Positions 5,296 to 55,225 of a stretch of 64,000 nucleotides of DNA are shown one piece after another. The translations under genes and the position numbers were made by a program. The stretch's first letter is position 1. The number at the start of each line of letters is the position of its first letter. The notes under the pieces are model-generated. The model ran no database searches and had not been told where the DNA came from. It was given only the letters and a program-made list of their open reading frames with translations. The stretch comes from a virus (taxonomy: Duplodnaviria; Caudoviricetes): positions 1-64,000 of the IMG/VR virus record IMGVR_UViG_3300047539_000078. One strand, written 5' to 3'.

Positions 5296-6269
5296 TGCAC
5301 CATAATAGTCGTCCCGCCAAAGTCAAAGCGGATGCGCAACTCACGCAGCCCAGCACTGTATAATACCCGTCTTAGACGGGCTTTGTCCTCGGTATAAAAC
5401 ATGAGGAAGCCCCCGCCACCGGCACCGACGAGCTTGCCGCCGAGCGCTCCGTTCTCCGTGGCCAATTTGTAAAGGTCATCGATGTGGCCGTTCGACATGC
5501 CTCCAGAGCGGGCACGCTTGTGCAGCCAGTGCTCGTGCATAATGGCAGCGAACTCCGGAAGGTTCCCGTTTTCCAACGCGGTGAGGCTTTGGATGCCTAA
5601 ACTCTTTGTAAAGTGTAGGTTATCAATCATGGCGGAATCGCTTTGCTTGCTCTTCACGTCCTGATCGGCCAGGATGCCGGATGCCGAACGGGCATAGCCC
5701 GTGAAGAAAAGGAGCAGGCCGTCCTCCAAGTTCGCCAATGTCTCTGGGGTGAGCTTCACGGGCGAGAACAAGACTTTTCCGTTCCGATCGAAGTCGAAGC
5801 GCGTGACCCCGCCGATGGCCGCGATGTACTGGTCCTGCTTGCCGCAATGCTGTTGAAGGATGTCATGCTCTATGTGAAAGGCTTCCTCGGCCAGTTCCTG
5901 GCGGGTGACGAACTGCTTCTGGTATGCGTGGAGCGCCCGGAGGATGGCGGTGGTGAAACTGCCGGACGAGCCGAGGCCCGTGCTGTGCGGGATGTCCGCC
6001 AAATTTGTGATGTCAATGTGGCCGGTCACGCCCGTAAGCCGCATGGCTTCCCGGATGACGGGGTGCTCCACCTGATCCACGGTGTCCACTTCCTCCAGCT
6101 TGGAGTATTTCAGGCTGATCTTCGGTCGAAAGGACTCGTTGACGGTCACGTAGACATACTTGTCTATGGCTGCGGATACGAGGAATCCGCCGTAGTCCTG
6201 GTAGTAGGACGGAAGGTCGGTTCCTCCCCCGCCGAGGGTGATCCGCAATGGTGATCTCACGATTATCAT
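5292..6269 (-). CDS. GHMP kinase, D-glycero-D-manno-heptose-7-phosphate kinase (HddA-like)
   Basis: RSPLRITLGGGGTD, GLGSSG, GKQDQY, GGKLVGAGGGGF. Confidence 0.88.
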   Translation of the reverse strand: MIIVRSPLRITLGGGGTDLPSYYQDYGGFLVSAAIDKYVYVTVNESFRPKISLKYSKLEEVDTVDQVEHPVIREAMRLTGVTGHIDITNLADIPHSTGLGSSGSFTTAILRALHAYQKQFVTRQELAEEAFHIEHDILQQHCGKQDQYIAAIGGVTRFDFDRNGKVLFSPVKLTPETLANLEDGLLLFFTGYARSASGILADQDVKSKQSDSAMIDNLHFTKSLGIQSLTALENGNLPEFAAIMHEHWLHKRARSGGMSNGHIDDLYKLATENGALGGKLVGAGGGGFLMFYTEDKARLRRVLYSAGLRELRIRFDFGGTTIMVQ

Positions 6270-47583: not shown

Positions 47584-50382
47584 CTAAATCTCGCACGACC
47601 CGCCAGCGCACGCCATTTCCTTCTGTGAGGTCGTGCCGTCCTCGATTTCGAATTCAGGCAAGCGGTTCCAATCTACGACCGGGAACGCGGCGACCAGCTT
47701 GTCGTATTCGGCCTTGGTGATTTCCGTGTTCGGAGCCTGTTTGTAGCAGTGCTCCGAGTACGGCAGGAACGAGATGCCGCCGATTTCGTCGAAGTTCTTG
47801 TAGACCCATGCACCGGCCTCCAGCCACTCATGCTCGCGGATGTAGACCGTGCACGACGGGTTGTGCTCCGTCCAATGGCGCTTGTAGGTCAGGTAGAGTT
47901 CGAGCTGCTGGATGGCGTTGCGGTCCTTGCGGAACACGCTCGTGTCCGGGGACTTCATCGGGAAGTAGAAGACGCAGACATCGTTCGGCTTGTTGATCTC
48001 CGGCTCCCAGGGCACTCCCATGGCCTTGAGGAAGTTGCTCACCGGGTCCTTGGCGTCGTTGCGGGTGGCACGGAGGACGAAGGGGCTGTGGCGGTCGTGG
48101 ATGCCGGGGGCACAGTCCACAAGTTGCGAGACCGTCCCGCTTGGCTTGTTGCAAGTTACGGCAGCGGCGGGGTTTATACCGAGCTTTTCGCTCCATTCGA
48201 TGTTGACCTCGATGCAGAACTGCCGCAATGAATCAAGGTTCTTTTCAAGGTCAGGTCCGTTTACGGATGTAAGTCTATTGTCTTCAATGCCGGTCAGGGA
48301 AACACCCAATAGGCGCTCTTCCTCGGCATTTTTCTTCCACTGCTTACGTAGATAGCGGAAATCGGTGAGCGTCGCCTGTAGGGTGCCCAGGATCGTCGCT
48401 AAACGTGCTTTACGGCGGATGTCCGCCCAGGTGTCGGTCGGTCGTACGACCACTTCCGTGAGGTTGCAGAAGCTCATGGAGCGGAGGAGAATCTCGCCGC
48501 ACGGGTTGCAGCCGAATTCGATGCCCTCCCACTTGCGGCGACCGGTCGCCTTTGCGGCCAGTTGGGCGGCATACCGGTTGAAGATGCCGCGTTCCCCGGA
48601 CTTGGACTCGTGGAGGGACAGCCATTCCTTCATGAACATCCCGATTTCAGGCTTTTCGGTGTAGACGGCGGAGTTGTTCGCCAGGCGACGCCACGGGGTG
48701 TTCTCTTCCTTGTACCATTCCCCGGTCTTGGCGTGGCGCATGCGCTCGTCGGACAGGTTGGAGAGGGAAATCATGGCGGAACGCCGGACGCCCCCGGACA
48801 CGACGACATCGGCGACCTTGCACATGAGGTCGTGGCATTCTAGGGAGGTTAGCTTGCGACCCGCAGCGCCCTGGAACAGGTGGACGGAGAACTTCATCAG
48901 GTCGTTGAGGGGTTCGGGACCGGATGCTCGACCGCCGAATGTCTTGAGCTTGGCACCCTTCTCTCGGATGGCGGACAAATCCCAGGTGGGGATCATGCCG
49001 GTGTAAAGCAGTGCGATGAGTTCCTTGAACGCGGTGGCCCAGCCGATTTTGGAATCGCGGACCTTGAGGACGACGCTGCTGTTGTGGAAACTTTCCGCGA
49101 CTACTGGAAGCTGATTGATATACTGGCGCTCGACGGAGAAACCGACCCCGGTCCCGCACATCGAAAGGTACATCGCTTCGTCGAACGCACGCTGGTCGTC
49201 GACGGCTAGATACGCGCAGTTCCCGGTCAAAATGCCATCCGCCAGCGTGAATGCGTGTGTTGCAGGTTCCATGACGCAGAAGACTTCCTCCGGTTCATCC
49301 AAGGGGGTTATGGCTTCAACCTTGAACCATCCGCTCTTTTGTATGGTAAGTCGTTGCAGGGGGTGCTTGCGGACTCCGTAAGGAGTCTCCATTGTAGGGT
49401 CGGTGTTTTTCCCGGTGATGATGTAACCGGCGAGGGGAGAGATTTCCTCAACAAATCTAATAGCAGCATCACTTTGCGAACTCAGGCTGGGTTGTTCCGG
49501 GCGCATGCATCCATCCGCCGCCAGATAACCTTCTAACCAGTTCTTGAGATAGTCGGCATCGGCATCAGTAGGCAGTTTTTTCCAGGTTTCGAAAAATCCT
49601 TTGTGAAATAGTACAACCGCGTCCCCTCCATAGGATGGGGGAAAGCAAACCGAGCAATGACCATAGGATTCAAATATATGCAGCCATTGTTTGTCTTTTT
49701 CCCCGCACAAGCGGACTTTCGCACGGCCACGGGTATCAATCGTACCGTCTCCGAATCCGAAACCAGCTATCCAAGCTTCAGCATTGAACACGACGGAATC
49801 CACGGGAGCACCTACAAAGCGCACTATGTCCCCAACTTGGAGGTCCGTCACTTCTCCGCGATTTTCCGTAAGCCAACGATGGTTAGGGGTTACGGTTATT
49901 TTTCTGCGGATATTCGTCCGAGAACGCCCATGCGGTTCACGTGTCGGCTTGAACGATACCTCCTGGACCGGTTGGATGCCGAAGGATGCAACATCAGCGT
50001 CGGACCACAACCCGTTTTTGGTTAAGACCTTGTGGGTTTGGCCGAACGCCTCAATAAAAGTCTTCACCCCGTCCTTGGTCAGGAATTTTTGGTGCCCCGC
50101 GAAGCAGTTGTATCCGGCAGCGTTGTCTTTCTCTAAAGCCTTGCCAGCCGTCATCATGGCACGCATCGACGGCATGACTTCCATGGCGATGATGGCCTGC
50201 TGGATTTCCTTCACCACCTTTTGCCGATCTTTTTCTGGAATGCGTCCCGAGAAGAAGTCCATGTAGCGTTGGATTGTTTCTTCCCCGTGTTCTCTTCGGT
50301 TTAGATCATCTCTCCATCTTGCGTAGCGTGTTTTGTGGATGAATGACGAATAAAATGCACCGACGTGATTTGAATTTGGCAT
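47584..50382 (-). CDS. nrdJ: Class II (B12-dependent) ribonucleotide reductase containing an intein
   Basis: MPSMR, YNC, GTGVGF, ASGP, GGVRRSA, NPCGE, CNL, KPSGTVS, C-terminal CAGGSC. Confidence 0.92.
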   Translation of the reverse strand: MPNSNHVGAFYSSFIHKTRYARWRDDLNRREHGEETIQRYMDFFSGRIPEKDRQKVVKEIQQAIIAMEVMPSMRAMMTAGKALEKDNAAGYNCFAGHQKFLTKDGVKTFIEAFGQTHKVLTKNGLWSDADVASFGIQPVQEVSFKPTREPHGRSRTNIRRKITVTPNHRWLTENRGEVTDLQVGDIVRFVGAPVDSVVFNAEAWIAGFGFGDGTIDTRGRAKVRLCGEKDKQWLHIFESYGHCSVCFPPSYGGDAVVLFHKGFFETWKKLPTDADADYLKNWLEGYLAADGCMRPEQPSLSSQSDAAIRFVEEISPLAGYIITGKNTDPTMETPYGVRKHPLQRLTIQKSGWFKVEAITPLDEPEEVFCVMEPATHAFTLADGILTGNCAYLAVDDQRAFDEAMYLSMCGTGVGFSVERQYINQLPVVAESFHNSSVVLKVRDSKIGWATAFKELIALLYTGMIPTWDLSAIREKGAKLKTFGGRASGPEPLNDLMKFSVHLFQGAAGRKLTSLECHDLMCKVADVVVSGGVRRSAMISLSNLSDERMRHAKTGEWYKEENTPWRRLANNSAVYTEKPEIGMFMKEWLSLHESKSGERGIFNRYAAQLAAKATGRRKWEGIEFGCNPCGEILLRSMSFCNLTEVVVRPTDTWADIRRKARLATILGTLQATLTDFRYLRKQWKKNAEEERLLGVSLTGIEDNRLTSVNGPDLEKNLDSLRQFCIEVNIEWSEKLGINPAAAVTCNKPSGTVSQLVDCAPGIHDRHSPFVLRATRNDAKDPVSNFLKAMGVPWEPEINKPNDVCVFYFPMKSPDTSVFRKDRNAIQQLELYLTYKRHWTEHNPSCTVYIREHEWLEAGAWVYKNFDEIGGISFLPYSEHCYKQAPNTEITKAEYDKLVAAFPVVDWNRLPEFEIEDGTTSQKEMACAGGSCEI
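49219..50106 (-). mobile_element. Intein (296 aa) with LAGLIDADG homing endonuclease
   Basis: AAGYN|CFAG...TPNHRW...WIAGFGFGDG...LEGYLAADG...VFCV...LTGN|CAY. Confidence 0.92.
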
Positions 50383-51043: not shown

Positions 51044-51073
51044 TTGACATTGATTCAAGTTTCGCGGTATTAT
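51044..51073 (+). promoter_or_regulatory. Sigma70-type promoter upstream of the RNA island
   Basis: TTGACA (51044), 18-nt spacer, TATTAT (51068). Confidence 0.7.
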
Positions 51074-51430
51074 AACCGTGACTGATGTACCCGAGTGAAA
51101 ACATTGGCCCCGCATGGTAGCGAGGTGAGCTACAGAGTAGCGTTCGTAACTGAGCAGGATTGCGGGGTTCAATTTATCAGCTTGACAAATGAAGTGAGAA
51201 ATGCGACTATGAAACTCTAGGCTGAACATGAACACTCTTCTCAAGACCGGACGAATTACCCGAGATACCTTCGACAACGTCGTCAGCTTCCAGGACGGCG
51301 TGGTCGTGACATCCGTACGCATTGACACGGATGGTGAACGAGGTATCGAGGTTGGCATCTAAGCGTCCCCGCACCAAAGGGCGCTTTCAAGCGCCAACCC
51401 ACCGGAAGTAGAAGCAAAATCTAAACATAC

Positions 51431-51506
51431 AGTCGGTTAGCTCAGAGGCAAGAGCACTACGTTTACACCGTAGGGGTCGAGATTTCAAAATTCTCACCGA
51501 CTACCA
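51431..51506 (+). tRNA. tRNA-Val(TAC)
   Basis: Cloverleaf, CTACG-tttacac-CGTAG, encoded CCA. Confidence 0.92.
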
Positions 51507-51515
51507 AGGACATTT

Positions 51516-52091
51516 ATGAGTGAGAGCCGGGTTTGGGTGATTTCAGACACGCACTGGAATCGCAACAAGATCAAGACGTATTGCGTGCGGCCACCGGGGT
51601 ACACCGAGCGGAGCATCCGCCTGTGGAATAACACGGTCAAGCCGGAGGATATGGTCATCCATTTGGGCGACGTGGCAATCGGCGGATACGACCAGGTGAA
51701 GGAAATCTTGGACAGCCTGCCGGGAACCAAGGTCCTCGTCACGGGTAACCATGATGAGAGCAAGTCGCTGACCTGGTGGATGCGGAACGGTTTTGTGTTC
51801 GCTTGTGAGGGGTTGGCTTTTCGGAATATCTGGTTGTCGCACAGACCAGCGTACCGGTTGCCGCCAGGGTGCCACCTGAATGTGCACGGTCATCTGCACA
51901 TCAAGCGGGAACACTGGAAGGTGATGAAGCCCTTCAACAAGCTGTTCGCGTTGGAGTATACGGATTATCGACCGGTGGTTTTCGACAAGTTCGTACAGTC
52001 ACCGTCGATTCGGGATTTGAAGTGGGAAGACCACCGTCCCGTGGAGCACGACCGCTTCATCGAGGCGCGAGTGCATCCGATTCCGTGGTAA
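51516..52091 (+). CDS. Calcineurin-like metallophosphoesterase
   Basis: SDTH, HLGD, GNHD, SHRP, HGHLH. Confidence 0.9.
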   Translation: MSESRVWVISDTHWNRNKIKTYCVRPPGYTERSIRLWNNTVKPEDMVIHLGDVAIGGYDQVKEILDSLPGTKVLVTGNHDESKSLTWWMRNGFVFACEGLAFRNIWLSHRPAYRLPPGCHLNVHGHLHIKREHWKVMKPFNKLFALEYTDYRPVVFDKFVQSPSIRDLKWEDHRPVEHDRFIEARVHPIPW

Positions 52092-52176
52092 CCAAATTCG
52101 TAGGCAGGTTGAAATCCCTGTCTCGCAAAGCTGTGGGAGCCTGTTTGCCGGTTATCCAAACAGGTTCTCTACATTT

Positions 52177-52251
52177 GCCTGTGTCGTCCAAGGGCTAGGA
52201 CGCACCCTCGATAGGGGTGTCATGGTGGTTCGAATCCATCCGCAGGTACCA
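52177..52251 (+). tRNA. Atypical tRNA, anticodon GAT (Ile?) with C33
   Basis: GCCTGTG/CGCAGGT acceptor, CACCC-tcgatag-GGGTG, TTCGAAT loop, ACCA. Confidence 0.75.
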
Positions 52252-52325
52252 TTAGGCAGAGATTCTGGCCAGACGCCAGATGGTCACAGTTGACCATCGT
52301 TTAACTAAGACGTTGCCTCCTTTTT

Positions 52326-52532
52326 ATGGAACAGCATGATTTTGTTGATTGGGCGGGAGTCGCCAGAATGCTCTTTGCTGGCTGGAACCCGTATCCCGAC
52401 AAGGCTTATTGTGAGAAGGTCGGCTGGTGTGTGAATACGGACGGCACCGTGGATACTCCGGGCGGAATCCGTATCCCGACGCGGGACCTTTTTGAAGTAA
52501 AGGAACTTGAGGCTCTATACAAGTTGGGGTGA
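52326..52532 (+). CDS. Hypothetical protein
   Basis: 68-aa ORF between tRNAs. Confidence 0.5.
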   Translation: MEQHDFVDWAGVARMLFAGWNPYPDKAYCEKVGWCVNTDGTVDTPGGIRIPTRDLFEVKELEALYKLG

Positions 52533-52555
52533 TGTGGACTTTTGAACGGTATTAT

Positions 52556-52630
52556 AGGCGGTTAGCTCAGTGGTTAGAGCGCGTCTCTCACACGGACGAG
52601 GCTCGGGTTCGATTCCCGACCTGCCTACCA
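52556..52630 (+). tRNA. tRNA-Val(CAC)
   Basis: CGTCT-ctcacac-GGACG, GGTTCGATTCC, ACCA. Confidence 0.88.
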
Positions 52631-52653
52631 AGAAGTTGTGGTATCATAGTAGT

Positions 52654-53046
52654 ATGAAAGACACAACTGGCATTGGTTCCGTAACTGAAGCTATGGTTTT
52701 GGCGGCCTTGATTCGCCAAGGGAAACAGGTTTACATCCCCTTTAGTGGGGACTCACGCAGCGATTTGATCGTGGATGGGGAAAGCGGTCTCATTCGCATT
52801 CAATGTAAGACGGGTCGGCTGCGTAATGGTTGCGTTGAGTTTCGCAACTATAGCCAAACAAGTGCGGGACTTCGACCGTATCAAAAGAAAGATGTTGATG
52901 TTTTCGGTGTTTATTGTCCGGCCAACGGGAAAGTGTATGTGGTTCCCATTGAAGAGTGTGGCGGACAACTTACGTTGCTTCGAATAGAACCAACGAAGAA
53001 TAACTACAAGAAGGGCGTTCGATTTGCAGTAAAGTACGAAGTTTAG
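52654..53046 (+). CDS. Free-standing PD-(D/E)XK endonuclease (group I intron-associated / I-Ssp6803I-like family)
   Basis: G...EA.V...L...G..V..P, DLIVD, RIQCKT, Y...VDVFGVY. Confidence 0.85.
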   Translation: MKDTTGIGSVTEAMVLAALIRQGKQVYIPFSGDSRSDLIVDGESGLIRIQCKTGRLRNGCVEFRNYSQTSAGLRPYQKKDVDVFGVYCPANGKVYVVPIEECGGQLTLLRIEPTKNNYKKGVRFAVKYEV

Positions 53047-53048
53047 TT

Positions 53049-53122
53049 GCGGGCATCGTATAGTGGTAATACACATGCTTGCCAAGCATGAGATGTGAGT
53101 TCGATTCTCATTGCCCGCTCCA
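53049..53122 (+). tRNA. tRNA-Gly(GCC)
   Basis: CATGC-ttgccaa-GCATG, TCCA. Confidence 0.95.
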
Positions 53123-53197
53123 TCGTGGAATTAAGTAGTGGAGGCGACTTGCAACGCAAGTTGAACCTGAGAAGCTATGAAGTCCACGTAAACTTAT

Positions 53198-53272
53198 GCG
53201 GTACTTTGTCGGTCTTGGAGTCTAGACACGGGACCGGACGCAGGCCCGTTGAATGACGGGGGGACCGCTCCA
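53198..53272 (+). ncRNA. tRNA-like element without canonical D/anticodon arms
   Basis: GCGGT/ACCGC plus TCCA end, CCCGT-tgaatg-ACGGG hairpin, 75 nt. Confidence 0.5.
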
Positions 53273-53276
53273 GTTT

Positions 53277-53543
53277 CTGTCACCCGAAAGGGTCGCTCGG
53301 TGCGGAAAGGGGCTGACACCGCAAGTTACAAAAGCCCGACAGATTGATTTTGTGTGCACCGTGCGGACCCTCACGCATATCGCGAGATGGGAAAAGCACC
53401 GGGATTAAGGCCCGAGATTCGACAGCCGAGAGGTTCGGCGGTGAACGGCCTAAAAGCCCGAACCGCTTGGTGGCGAAAGCCAACACCGACTGGCGCACGC
53501 AACTAAATTTATAAAAGGAAGGGAGTGGCAACACCAACCCTTC
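53277..53543 (+). ncRNA. Unknown highly structured RNA(s)
   Basis: Several GNRA-capped hairpins, closing stems CTGTC/GACAG and TTGTGTGC/GCACGCAA, no plus-strand ORF in the track. Confidence 0.6.
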
Positions 53544-53568
53544 GGCGGGGCACTTAAAAATGCCCTAT

Positions 53569-53643
53569 GCCCTGCTAGCTCAGTGGTTAGAGCGCAGCCA
53601 TGACACGGCTGAAACAGAGGTTCAATTCCTCTGCGGGGCACCA
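53569..53643 (+). tRNA. tRNA-Val(GAC)
   Basis: CAGCC-atgacac-GGCTG, ACCA. Confidence 0.92.
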
Positions 53644-53646
53644 GAT

Positions 53647-53720
53647 GCGGGCGTCGTACAATGGCAGTATAGAAGCTTCCCAAGCTTCGGATGTGGGTTC
53701 GATTCCCATCGCCCGCTCCA
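53647..53720 (+). tRNA. tRNA-Gly(CCC)
   Basis: GAAGC-ttcccaa-GCTTC, TCCA. Confidence 0.95.
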
Positions 53721-53784
53721 GAAGTCCCGCCAGTCTTCGGACTGGCAATGTCTCGGACCCGTGGAATGAGGATAACGGGCAAAC

Positions 53785-53858
53785 GCGGGGTTGGCATATA
53801 GGTTGTGCACCAGCCTTCCAAGCTGGACAAACGGGTTCGAGTCCCGTACCCCGCTCCA
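53785..53858 (+). tRNA. tRNA-Gly(TCC)
   Basis: CCAGC-cttccaa-GCTGG, TCCA. Confidence 0.95.
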
Positions 53859-53934
53859 GTGTTCTTGTCGTTGACTAGGATGCCGCCCATAAGAGGGTGG
53901 AGCATCCTTGGTGGCGTCAAGGACACTTAAAATT

Positions 53935-54010
53935 GGTGCTGTAGAGGAACGGCTAACTCGTCTCCCTGTCACGGAGAAGATAGTGGGTTCGACACCCATC
54001 AGCACCGCCA
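53935..54010 (+). tRNA. tRNA-Asp(GTC)
   Basis: TCTCC-ctgtcac-GGAGA, GCCA. Confidence 0.94.
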
Positions 54011-54012
54011 GT

Positions 54013-54083
54013 GTTCCTGTAGTCTAACCAGGACGCCGCTCCTTTGGGCGGAGATGTGGGCTTGACGCCCGCCGGGGACACCA
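54013..54083 (+). tRNA. Degenerate tRNA, anticodon undetermined
   Basis: GTTCCTG/CGGGGAC plus ACCA, short D arm, 6-nt anticodon loop CCTTTG, non-canonical T loop CTTGACG. Confidence 0.6.
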
Positions 54084-54132
54084 GCCGTGACGTAGACTGG
54101 GGAACGGGTTTCTACGGCCAGGTTCCCCTTAT

Positions 54133-54207
54133 GGCCCACTAGTGCAACGGCCAGCACACTTGGTTCTCAACCAAGAGACGCGGGTTCAACTCCCACGTGG
54201 GCTACCA
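54133..54207 (+). tRNA. tRNA-Glu(CTC)
   Basis: CTTGG-ttctcaa-CCAAG, ACCA. Confidence 0.92.
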
Positions 54208-54213
54208 GCTTAG

Positions 54214-54389
54214 CGTGCCCCCATCAACGGGGGTGAGCAGGTGCGTTATCACCTGAGGCGAAGCCGACCTTAACGACGGCATTAGTCCCCTGCTGAAATG
54301 CAGGCGTAGCTAGGCACGATTTCTGAGATAGTAGGAAAGAGTATCTTGCGGGCTGGCTGATGGGTTCCGCATCTAAGTTCTACCTACTG
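54214..54389 (+). ncRNA. Unknown multi-branched structured RNA(s)
   Basis: CGTGCC/GGCACG closes several hairpins; then a TAGTAGG/CCTACTG stem. Confidence 0.5.
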
Positions 54390-54405
54390 AGTTGCATCAG
54401 CATTT

Positions 54406-54479
54406 GGCCCGTTAGTGTATAGGTAACACATGAGCCTTTCAAGCTCATTAAGCGAGTTCGAGTCTCGCACGGGCTACCA
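54406..54479 (+). tRNA. tRNA-Glu(TTC)
   Basis: TGAGC-ctttcaa-GCTCA, ACCA. Confidence 0.93.
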
Positions 54480-54676
54480 AATCCTCCATGAGTCCCAAAC
54501 TTCACATCGTTTCCGAGGGCGGGAAGTTCGTCATCAAAGACGAGCAAAGTCACGCATACGGAACATACCCCACGAAAAAGCAAGCCGACGATACCGCGAA
54601 GCTGTGGCGGGATTACTACGAAGACCGGCACGCATAATTTCCTCCATGAATGTCCTATCCCGTGGTATCATAGGCT

Positions 54677-55225
54677 ATGCCTCGAATTTCAAACGCCTTT
54701 GACGCATACCGGTTTCTCCATGACCACCCCGCCTTCCGCCTATCCGAACGATCTGAAATCACGCTCAACGAAGCAGTCTTCCAACGGGAGATGGGATTTC
54801 TCATCACGAAGGATCGCGGCGGGCAGCATTATCGCGTGTGGCGTCACGTGCACCGCCGCGCCATTGCCGAGAATCTTGACATTTTCTATACGAAGACCGA
54901 CAAGCCAGGCGGGCACGGAACCGTCCAGGAAGACAAATCCAAAAACAGGCACGTCGAATGCTGGTTGGAGTTCGGTCCGCTCAGTTATGGCTATAGCGTT
55001 GATTGGGAAGATACGACCCGCCTGCAGCATGAACACGATTGGCGCTTGGACACGGGCGGGTCGACTTTCGATGAAGCAATCGTCAGCTTGGCGAGACTCG
55101 TCAAGAAATTCTACGGCGACTACAAGCTTGGAAAGCGCACTGACGATTGCGATACACCGATATGTGCCGATTGCTTGGAGACAGGGTTCATGGTAGAGCG
55201 CTTGGGCTTGGGGAAGAAGAAATGA
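54677..55225 (+). CDS. Hypothetical phage protein, probably leaderless
   Basis: TGGTATCAT ends 5 nt before ATG; WLEFG...HDWRLDTGG.TFDEAI..LA. Confidence 0.7.
   Translation: MPRISNAFDAYRFLHDHPAFRLSERSEITLNEAVFQREMGFLITKDRGGQHYRVWRHVHRRAIAENLDIFYTKTDKPGGHGTVQEDKSKNRHVECWLEFGPLSYGYSVDWEDTTRLQHEHDWRLDTGGSTFDEAIVSLARLVKKFYGDYKLGKRTDDCDTPICADCLETGFMVERLGLGKKK

Follow-up and report, generated by a model that had tools for sequence, protein, structure and literature searches.

Phages are known to encode large structured RNAs beside their transfer RNA (tRNA) genes, among them GOLLD and ROOL, whose function is unknown and which are both represented in Rfam. Plant mitochondria possess t-elements, which are cut by tRNA-processing enzymes. 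According to part of a study on t-elements (PMC1920247), they are tRNA-like structures which lie in polycistronic transcripts and help to form the 5′- and 3′-ends of the neighbouring messenger RNAs (mRNAs). In phage T4, two small non-tRNA RNAs, RNAC and RNAD (species 1 and 2), are located in the tRNA cluster and co-transcribed with it; their role is unknown (PMC3014915). The same cluster harbors the gene of the homing endonuclease SegB, which, as passages of two reports describe, drives preferential inheritance of the tRNA region and can also amplify it (PMC2330249, PMC13096335). In Y-RNA-like non-coding RNAs of bacteria and phages such as YrlA, a tRNA-like module is found together with a terminal stem, as stated in part of the source (PMC4201824), and some jumbo phages encode a Ro/TROVE protein, the cellular counterpart of which has a tRNA-like RNA as partner (PMC7824862). 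Here we describe the tRNA array at positions 51044-54479 of the record IMGVR_UViG_3300047539_000078, which originates from an uncultured phage. The window, i.e. the whole stretch of DNA analyzed, comprises the first 64 kb of this 142-kb IMG/VR record, for which CheckV gives a completeness of 42 %. We read the array, with moderate confidence, as a phage tRNA operon whose gaps are occupied by RNA cassettes of various kinds, each folding on its own.

Ten tRNA genes, all on the + strand, were identified between 51431 and 54479 by ARAGORN and Rfam in agreement, and no further ones were found in the remainder of the 142-kb record. The array also holds four small open reading frames (ORFs) and about 12 non-coding units, each of which resides on the tRNA strand (Table 1). 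It had originally been predicted from the sequence that many of these units begin 0-3 nucleotides (nt) after the CCA of a tRNA; direct reading affirmed this for six of them, which start at a distance of 0-2 nt. The assumption that the spacers encode RNAs of no known family was corroborated as well, since comparison with Rfam disclosed tRNAs as the sole matches, both at the gathering threshold and at E<=10.

Like RNAC and RNAD, the units are non-tRNA RNA loci located inside a cluster of phage tRNA genes and encoded on the same strand as these, and like the T4 cluster with segB, the array carries an endonuclease gene between tRNAs that is present or absent among relatives. Unlike the T4 RNAs, to which no sequence relation was found (blastn of the 3.5-kb region against 50,697 phage records gave tRNA matches only), the units, known here from the sequence, are many more in number and diverse in fold; a tRNA-derived cloverleaf and an RNA of 267 nt are among them. 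The endonuclease, known here from its gene, is of the PDDEXK_5 type, whereas SegB is a GIY-YIG enzyme. Pattern scans of IMG/VR for the rod 53124-53188, element B, the 54208 domain and the UUCG unit (all in Table 1) gave no matches. The GNRA-rich unit of 267 nt occupies the same kind of niche beside tRNAs as GOLLD and ROOL, unlike them in its size (267 nt versus roughly 580-800 nt); an identity with either was rejected, as 53277-53543 had no Rfam match at E<=10. The cloverleaf 52254-52318 in front of ORF68, and element B, could work in the manner of t-elements by analogy, though these stem from another kingdom and there is no homology. A relationship to YrlA/Y RNA with Ro60 was likewise rejected: the 142-kb fragment (42 % complete) disclosed no TROVE/Ro gene (PF05731), no Rfam match to Y_RNA or YrlA was obtained, and a search of the array for the UUACAGCAA-type motif was negative. 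Unlike Y RNA and YrlA, element B lacks the T-loop consensus. Structured non-tRNA RNAs in a phage tRNA cluster are of a known kind (T4 RNAC/RNAD), of which the array presents a novel variety; it includes a well-defined tRNA-derived mimic and two RNAs supported by covariation.

Table 1. Features of the array in order of position (z, folding score against dinucleotide shuffles)
Feature	Coordinates	Strand	Evidence
Promoter P1 (TTGACA, 18 nt, TATTAT)	51044-51073	+	near-consensus sigma-70, 11/12 consensus matches
Stem-closed RNA near P1, marginal	51103-51173	+	z -2.3 to -2.55
44-codon ORF preceding first tRNA	51228-51362	+	translation
tRNA-Val(tac)	51431-51506	+	ARAGORN, Rfam
Metallophosphoesterase gene	51516-52091	+	Pfam Metallophos, E 4e-11; phrog_547 phosphoesterase
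Long hairpin, phosphoesterase stop codon to tRNA-Ile	52132-52173	+	z -4.2 (folded as 52130-52173)
tRNA-Ile(gat)	52177-52251	+	ARAGORN, Rfam
Cloverleaf-shaped RNA, 4-5-nt loops, without CCA	52254-52318	+	z -3.7; directly 5′ of ORF68
ORF68, small phage gene in insertion cassette	52326-52532	+	homologues in other contigs
tRNA-Val(cac)	52556-52630	+	ARAGORN, Rfam
Free-standing PD-(D/E)XK endonuclease gene	52654-53046	+	Pfam PF11645 (PDDEXK_5), E 3e-29
tRNA-Gly(gcc)	53049-53122	+	ARAGORN, Rfam
Rod RNA, 65 nt, four stacked helices	53124-53188	+	z -4.8
75-nt unit, tRNA-Gly-like ends (GCGG ... CCGC-U-CCA), body unsupported	53198-53272	+	z -1.2
GNRA-rich candidate structured RNA, 267 nt	53277-53543	+	z -3.2 (-3.25)
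tRNA-Val(gac)	53569-53643	+	ARAGORN, Rfam
tRNA-Gly(ccc)	53647-53720	+	ARAGORN, Rfam
64-nt spacer with UUCG-capped hairpin, unsupported overall	53721-53784	+	z -1.1
tRNA-Gly(tcc)	53785-53858	+	ARAGORN, Rfam
Element A, near-perfect rod, 68 nt, paralogue of B	53859-53926	+	z -6.0
tRNA-Asp(gtc)	53935-54010	+	ARAGORN, Rfam
Element B, tRNA-derived cloverleaf, non-decoding, A-CCA end	54013-54083	+	z -2.7 (folded as 54011-54083)
Short spacer	54084-54128	+	z -0.3
tRNA-Glu(ctc)	54133-54207	+	ARAGORN, Rfam
Multi-hairpin domain, closed by 7-bp stem	54208-54315	+	z -2.8 (folded as 54208-54318)
3′ half of Glu-Glu spacer	54316-54405	+	z +0.3 (folded as 54319-54405)
tRNA-Glu(ttc)	54406-54479	+	ARAGORN, Rfam

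Folding and covariation of the spacer RNAs

Each listed unit was folded and compared with dinucleotide shuffles, and the calculation was repeated on both strands. Six or seven units are clearly structured well beyond chance, with z-scores of -2.7 to -6.0. For comparison, 200 windows of 68 nt, taken at random from this genome, gave a mean z of -0.18 with a standard deviation of 1.0, and none of the 200 reached z<=-3. Most of the supported units folded markedly better on the + strand than on the - strand, which is the expectation for RNA structures with G-U pairs. The ten true tRNAs ranged only from -0.85 to -3.9; a weak z-score therefore does not rule out a function. The original prediction, in which nearly every gap was filled by its own foldable unit, held for the six or seven units but failed for about five, and thus about half of the units beat the shuffles and about half did not.

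For comparative studies, relatives were recovered with the phosphoesterase gene of the array as anchor. They comprised ten strain-level contigs (L010-L019) with 97-100 % identity, one contig (L020) with about 84-86 % nucleotide identity, and a complete 300-kb phage (L002/L004) with 56 % protein identity. Most other homologues of the phosphoesterase (about 50-57 % identity) lie outside tRNA arrays and gave no extra comparative data. Structured spacers were present in L020 and L002, too.

Two spacers gave compensatory changes at both sides of their helices. In the rod 53124-53188, all 22 pairs are kept in L020, four of them by changes on both sides and none broken, at a sequence identity of only 67 %; the changes that keep pairing include the replacement of the apical hairpin. 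The spacer 52103-52173, which as a whole gave a z-score of -3.6, is 74 % identical to its L020 counterpart. RNAalifold counted five double changes in this spacer, three of which reside within the hairpin 52132-52173 according to our own pairing. As the four-fold-degenerate sites of the adjacent gene are also 74 % identical between the window and L020, the sequence of both spacers evidently drifts freely while the pairing is held. Altogether, at least four units show selection for structure or changes compatible with it.

The rods and foldable units that had been proposed at 53124-53188, 53859-53926, 52103-52173 and 53277-53543, as well as the four-way junction at 52254-52318, were all borne out by their z-scores. 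In the 267-nt RNA, three strain-level changes were detected and all three fall into predicted loops, a placement that lends weak support to the modelled structure. Homologues of ORF68 from other contigs were examined for an upstream cloverleaf and none was present. The unit proposed at 54214-54389 proved to be composite. Its 5′ half (54208-54318 as folded) is supported. Relative to L020, to which the domain is 90 % identical, one of its 32 pairs is altered on both sides, two are altered on one side only, and one pair, an apical one, is broken. The 3′ half folds no better than shuffles and has no homologue in L020. An outer stem CGTGCC/GGCACG was considered for the 54208 domain and discarded, because in our reading of the alignment it is mismatched in the L015 and L020 variants; the stem GCTTAGC/GCTAGGC was retained in its place.

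Other proposed folds did not withstand the analysis. The tRNA-like fold suggested for 53198-53272 was called neither by relaxed ARAGORN, nor by the Rfam tRNA model, nor by the covariance model of element B described below (R2), and only its ends resemble tRNA-Gly; L020 carries a second tRNA-Ile at this position. Alternative identities were also rejected for this part of the array. A split tRNA with intron (53198-53568) was not found by ARAGORN with introns allowed and gave no Rfam intron match, a group I intron in a tRNA gene was dismissed since no flanking split exons were found, and a standard or permuted transfer-messenger RNA (53198-53543) was detected by ARAGORN neither in the window nor in the genome and had no Rfam match. 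For the UUCG hairpin unit 53721-53784, the identity of 97-98 % with L020 is uninformative on constraint because the flanking tRNAs are 97-100 % identical, too. The pseudoknot suggested for 54084-54128 was discarded, as an equivalent pairing occurs in 5 % of random genomic windows and in 11 % of shuffles. The RNA at 51103-51173, finally, which had been counted among the units between tRNAs, is marginal and actually lies between two promoters. The promoter-proximal segment containing it is absent from L016. In L020 its place is taken by an unrelated, very stable nested hairpin (5553-5665, z -6.35), which ends with a GC-rich stem followed by a U run and looks like a short gene for a small RNA, reaching from promoter to terminator.

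A tRNA-derived cloverleaf and its paralogue

Element B was not on the original list of units. It starts 2 nt 3′ of the CCA of tRNA-Asp and possesses a discriminator A and a CCA of its own at its end. The acceptor stem comprises 7 bp, or up to 9 bp if leader-trailer pairing is counted, the D stem 4 bp with a loop of 5 nt and the T stem 6 bp with a loop of 5 nt. In the central stem of 5-6 bp, the loop measures 4-6 nt (4 in the minimum-energy fold, 6 with a 2-nt 'anticodon'). At a threshold of 80 %, ARAGORN reported exactly 54013-54083 as 'tRNA-???' with a 2-nt anticodon, and the Rfam tRNA model RF00005 did not match element B even at E<=10. Thus, B shares with canonical tRNAs the cloverleaf, the 7-bp acceptor stem, the discriminator, the CCA and the order of the D, anticodon and T arms. 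Unlike them, it has short loops throughout, no 7-nt anticodon loop with a 3-nt anticodon, neither the conserved residues of the D- and T-loops nor the T-loop consensus, and no score at the Rfam gathering level.

Four B variants were used to build a covariance model, which aligned in register with all ten true tRNAs (12-36 bits); in these alignments, the D and anticodon loops of the tRNAs contain additional residues. Because of this and of the ARAGORN call with a 2-nt anticodon, we concluded that element B derives from a tRNA, that its D, anticodon and T loops have been shortened, and that it is unable to decode. Its homologue in L020 folded with a z-score of -3.6, and across the four variants from two lineages none of the 25 pairs is broken.

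Element A has both ends and the central hairpin in common with B and matched the B model with 24.5 bits. Its D and T regions are now complementary to each other, and the CCA has been lost. A rod covariance model applied to 167 kb of related loci revealed no further rods. When the B model was run over the same 167 kb, the entire phage record and two further ones, it detected only tRNAs and element A, plus one extra weak match in L020 (E 0.12). At positions 5497-5567 and 5916-5985 of L002, in the homologous array, there are a tRNA of ochre-suppressor type (anticodon tta) and a gene resembling tRNA-Gly(gcc), the T arm of which is truncated and which was not called by ARAGORN.

Turnover of the units and accompanying genes

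Among the near-identical strains, differences coincide with unit boundaries at tRNA ends. A block of 267 bp (52254-52520) comprising the cloverleaf and ORF68 is missing from six strains. In L015, 54084-54128 is replaced by an unrelated stem-closed module of 131 nt which occurs at the same site, between element B and tRNA-Glu(ctc), in L020 (L015 2478-2610; L020 7435-7569; 131-135 nt, 11-bp closing stem, z -2.2). As this module is letter-identical in two lineages that differ by about 15 % overall, it appears to have been transferred recently between them. It belongs to an L020-type segment of 421 nt (96 % identity) in L015, a strain otherwise about 99 % identical to the window; the segment contains a B variant, the 131-nt module, an allele of tRNA-Glu(ctc) and the 54208 domain. 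For tRNA-Val(tac), two alleles with about 30 different positions exist among strains that are 97-100 % identical, which indicates allelic replacement by recombination. L020 has neither the endonuclease gene nor the cloverleaf-ORF68 block, and it also lacks unit A and the block 53198-53568; the identities of its tRNAs to those of the window vary from 67 % to 100 %. From the mixed identities and the exchange of blocks we concluded that the array is a recombination mosaic, the units of which behave as cassettes that near-identical strains have acquired, lost or swapped. The unusually high diversity of units that had been noted is in part due to this shuffling, and one of the units is tRNA-derived.

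Upstream of the array, a second TTGACA-type site (P2) was read from the sequence at about 51183, in addition to promoter P1. A convincing terminator-like site on the + strand between the tRNAs was not found; the sole + strand matches (52468-52486) are located inside ORF68. The leader region 51183-51430 shows 87 % identity with L020. The 44-codon ORF between P2 and the first tRNA had no match in Pfam or PHROG. Val, Asp, Gly, Glu and Ile together make up 23 of its 44 residues, and the tRNAs downstream of it serve these same five amino acids. The solved structure nearest to the metallophosphoesterase is that of an uncharacterised protein, so that no role in RNA repair is claimed for this enzyme. 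Homologues of ORF68 with 68-78 % identity in other contigs have protein genes as neighbours.

The endonuclease gene resides between tRNA-Val(cac) and tRNA-Gly(gcc), two tRNAs that are only 11 nt apart in L020, and its product is likely a homing endonuclease, with a gene position comparable to that of T4 segB. The sequence GTGGTATCAT, which resembles an extended -10 region (TGnTATCAT), occurs at 52638-52647 and 54662-54671 and ends 6-7 nt upstream of the ATG of two reading frames, that of the endonuclease and one at 54677-55225. With at most one mismatch this motif was encountered eight times in the window, compared to 2.8 expected occurrences. Its placement suggests leaderless or nearly leaderless mRNAs; a CCTCC-ATG upstream motif was not enriched.

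Outside the window, a full-length gene for an RtcB RNA ligase was identified (87533-88657 of the 142-kb record, 358 bits), which provides RNA-repair capacity in the same phage as the tRNA operon. Neither a PF09414 ligase nor a CCA-adding enzyme was found in the 142-kb record (42 % complete). The gene of a class II ribonucleotide reductase (47584-50382, - strand) encodes 932 amino acids, of which residues 153-385 weakly match an intein-splicing domain. In L020, the homologue comprises only 636 amino acids, and this difference in length suggests the insertion of an intein in the lineage of the window.

Possible roles of the spacer RNAs

On the reading we prefer, that of a tRNA operon with independently folding cassettes, P1 and P2 would drive long precursor transcripts, in which RNase P may cut the 5′-end of each tRNA and of element B. 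As each spacer helix begins at a distance of 0-2 nt from the upstream CCA and pairs both ends of the spacer, these cuts would set free closed, exonuclease-resistant small RNAs similar to RNAC and RNAD of T4, and they would leave at most 0-2 extra nucleotides on the upstream tRNA. Excision of the units by tRNA processing is plausible, as the terminal helices abut the upstream CCA. The most likely role of the spacer RNAs would be exerted in cis, as processing punctuation and end protection, which would yield clean tRNA 3′-ends. The hairpin 52132-52173 may cap the 3′-end of the phosphoesterase mRNA as a stabiliser, the cloverleaf 52254-52318 may, in the way of a t-element, define where the mRNA of ORF68 begins, and B/A and the 267-nt RNA are candidates for an accessory role in trans. 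The original observation of foldable units in the gaps is partly confirmed, and its interpretation, according to which tRNAs punctuate a transcript and release a panel of small RNAs, is partly supported.

Several points weigh against this reading. Unit boundaries had been picked by eye, and for this reason the z-scores are somewhat inflated. Five listed units fold no better than shuffles, with 51103-51173 being marginal. The comparative depth is small (2-4 distinct sequences per unit); the cloverleaf 52254-52318 is known from near-identical strains only, and the same holds for the 267-nt RNA, which is absent from L020. Covariation, which supports the rod and the hairpin 52132-52173 by double changes, does not extend to element B. 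Four of its stem positions are changed and all four keep pairing, none of them by a double change; by our estimate, four such pair-keeping transitions would occur by chance in about one case out of four. The distribution of units among the strains shows that no variable cassette is essential. With regard to the original interpretation, at least two units, the hairpin after the phosphoesterase gene and the cloverleaf before ORF68, are more simply explained as cis elements.

In a rival explanation, all structured spacers are purely cis-acting signals for processing, insulation, stability or attenuation, and the excised pieces are degraded. The helices adjoin the upstream CCA, the hairpin 52132-52173 lies directly 3′ of the phosphoesterase stop codon and keeps its pairing at varying sequence, and the cloverleaf 52254-52318 is situated just 5′ of ORF68, reminiscent of the t-elements which part of PMC1920247 places at mRNA ends. 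Even the different shapes of the units would be expected if any stable helix suffices. Such signals would scarcely require the full cloverleaf and CCA kept by B, which was duplicated into A and exceeds the need of an end-protecting helix, nor the 267-nt multi-domain RNA, which far exceeds the size of a processing signal; furthermore, two adjacent tRNAs only 3 nt apart (53643/53647) do without any such element. We therefore deem a purely cis-acting set of spacers somewhat unlikely. The spacers might also be functionless debris, left behind by tRNA genes in decay and by the shuffling of cassettes, in which any structure is residual or accidental. This would agree with a B element that fits the tRNA model yet cannot decode, with the tRNA-Gly-like ends retained by 53198-53272, with the truncated T arm of the tRNA-Gly(gcc)-like gene in L002, with the five units no more stable than shuffles and with the dispensability of the variable units. 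It is hardly compatible with double compensatory changes in the rod and the hairpin at a divergence equal to or beyond that of four-fold sites, with the fact that every pair of B is intact in four variants from two lineages, or with z-scores down to -6, compared to none of 200 control windows at z<=-3. Debris is thus quite improbable.

The original prediction had named decoys for host defence proteins as an example; the released RNAs would then sequester, for instance, sensors or nucleases that target tRNAs. Both B and A have the shape of a tRNA and do not decode, the phage devotes genes to tRNA-centred functions (tRNAs of its own and the RtcB ligase, 87533-88657), and the cassettes turn over quickly between strains, which is also the tendency of counter-defence genes; phage tRNA regions are also counter-defence loci, as part of PMC13096335 reports. 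Considering that the anticodon-loop region, the usual target of the nucleases, is just what B lacks and what varies between its variants, and that most units are not tRNA-like at all, we regard decoys as very improbable. A broader scenario seems rather improbable. In this case, host tRNA-maturation enzymes would cut out a strain-variable cocktail of trans-acting RNAs (B, A, the 65-nt rod and the 267-nt RNA) directed against tRNA-handling proteins, and co-infecting phages would trade the cassettes, helped by the homing endonuclease. Possible targets would be defence nucleases, sensors, RNase P, and CCA-adding or repair enzymes of host or phage.

Phage tRNA clusters are usually annotated as tRNAs and junk. 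In the present array, selection for structure acts on two or more of the spacer RNAs, a tRNA has turned into a non-decoding mimic, and the units are mobile as cassettes between strains. On the reading of a tRNA operon with folding cassettes, the spacer RNAs would be defined substrates of RNase P and as such testable. Since, according to the same part of PMC13096335, phage tRNA regions are known counter-defence loci, the spacer RNAs become concrete candidates for RNA-based counter-defence or for the control of processing.

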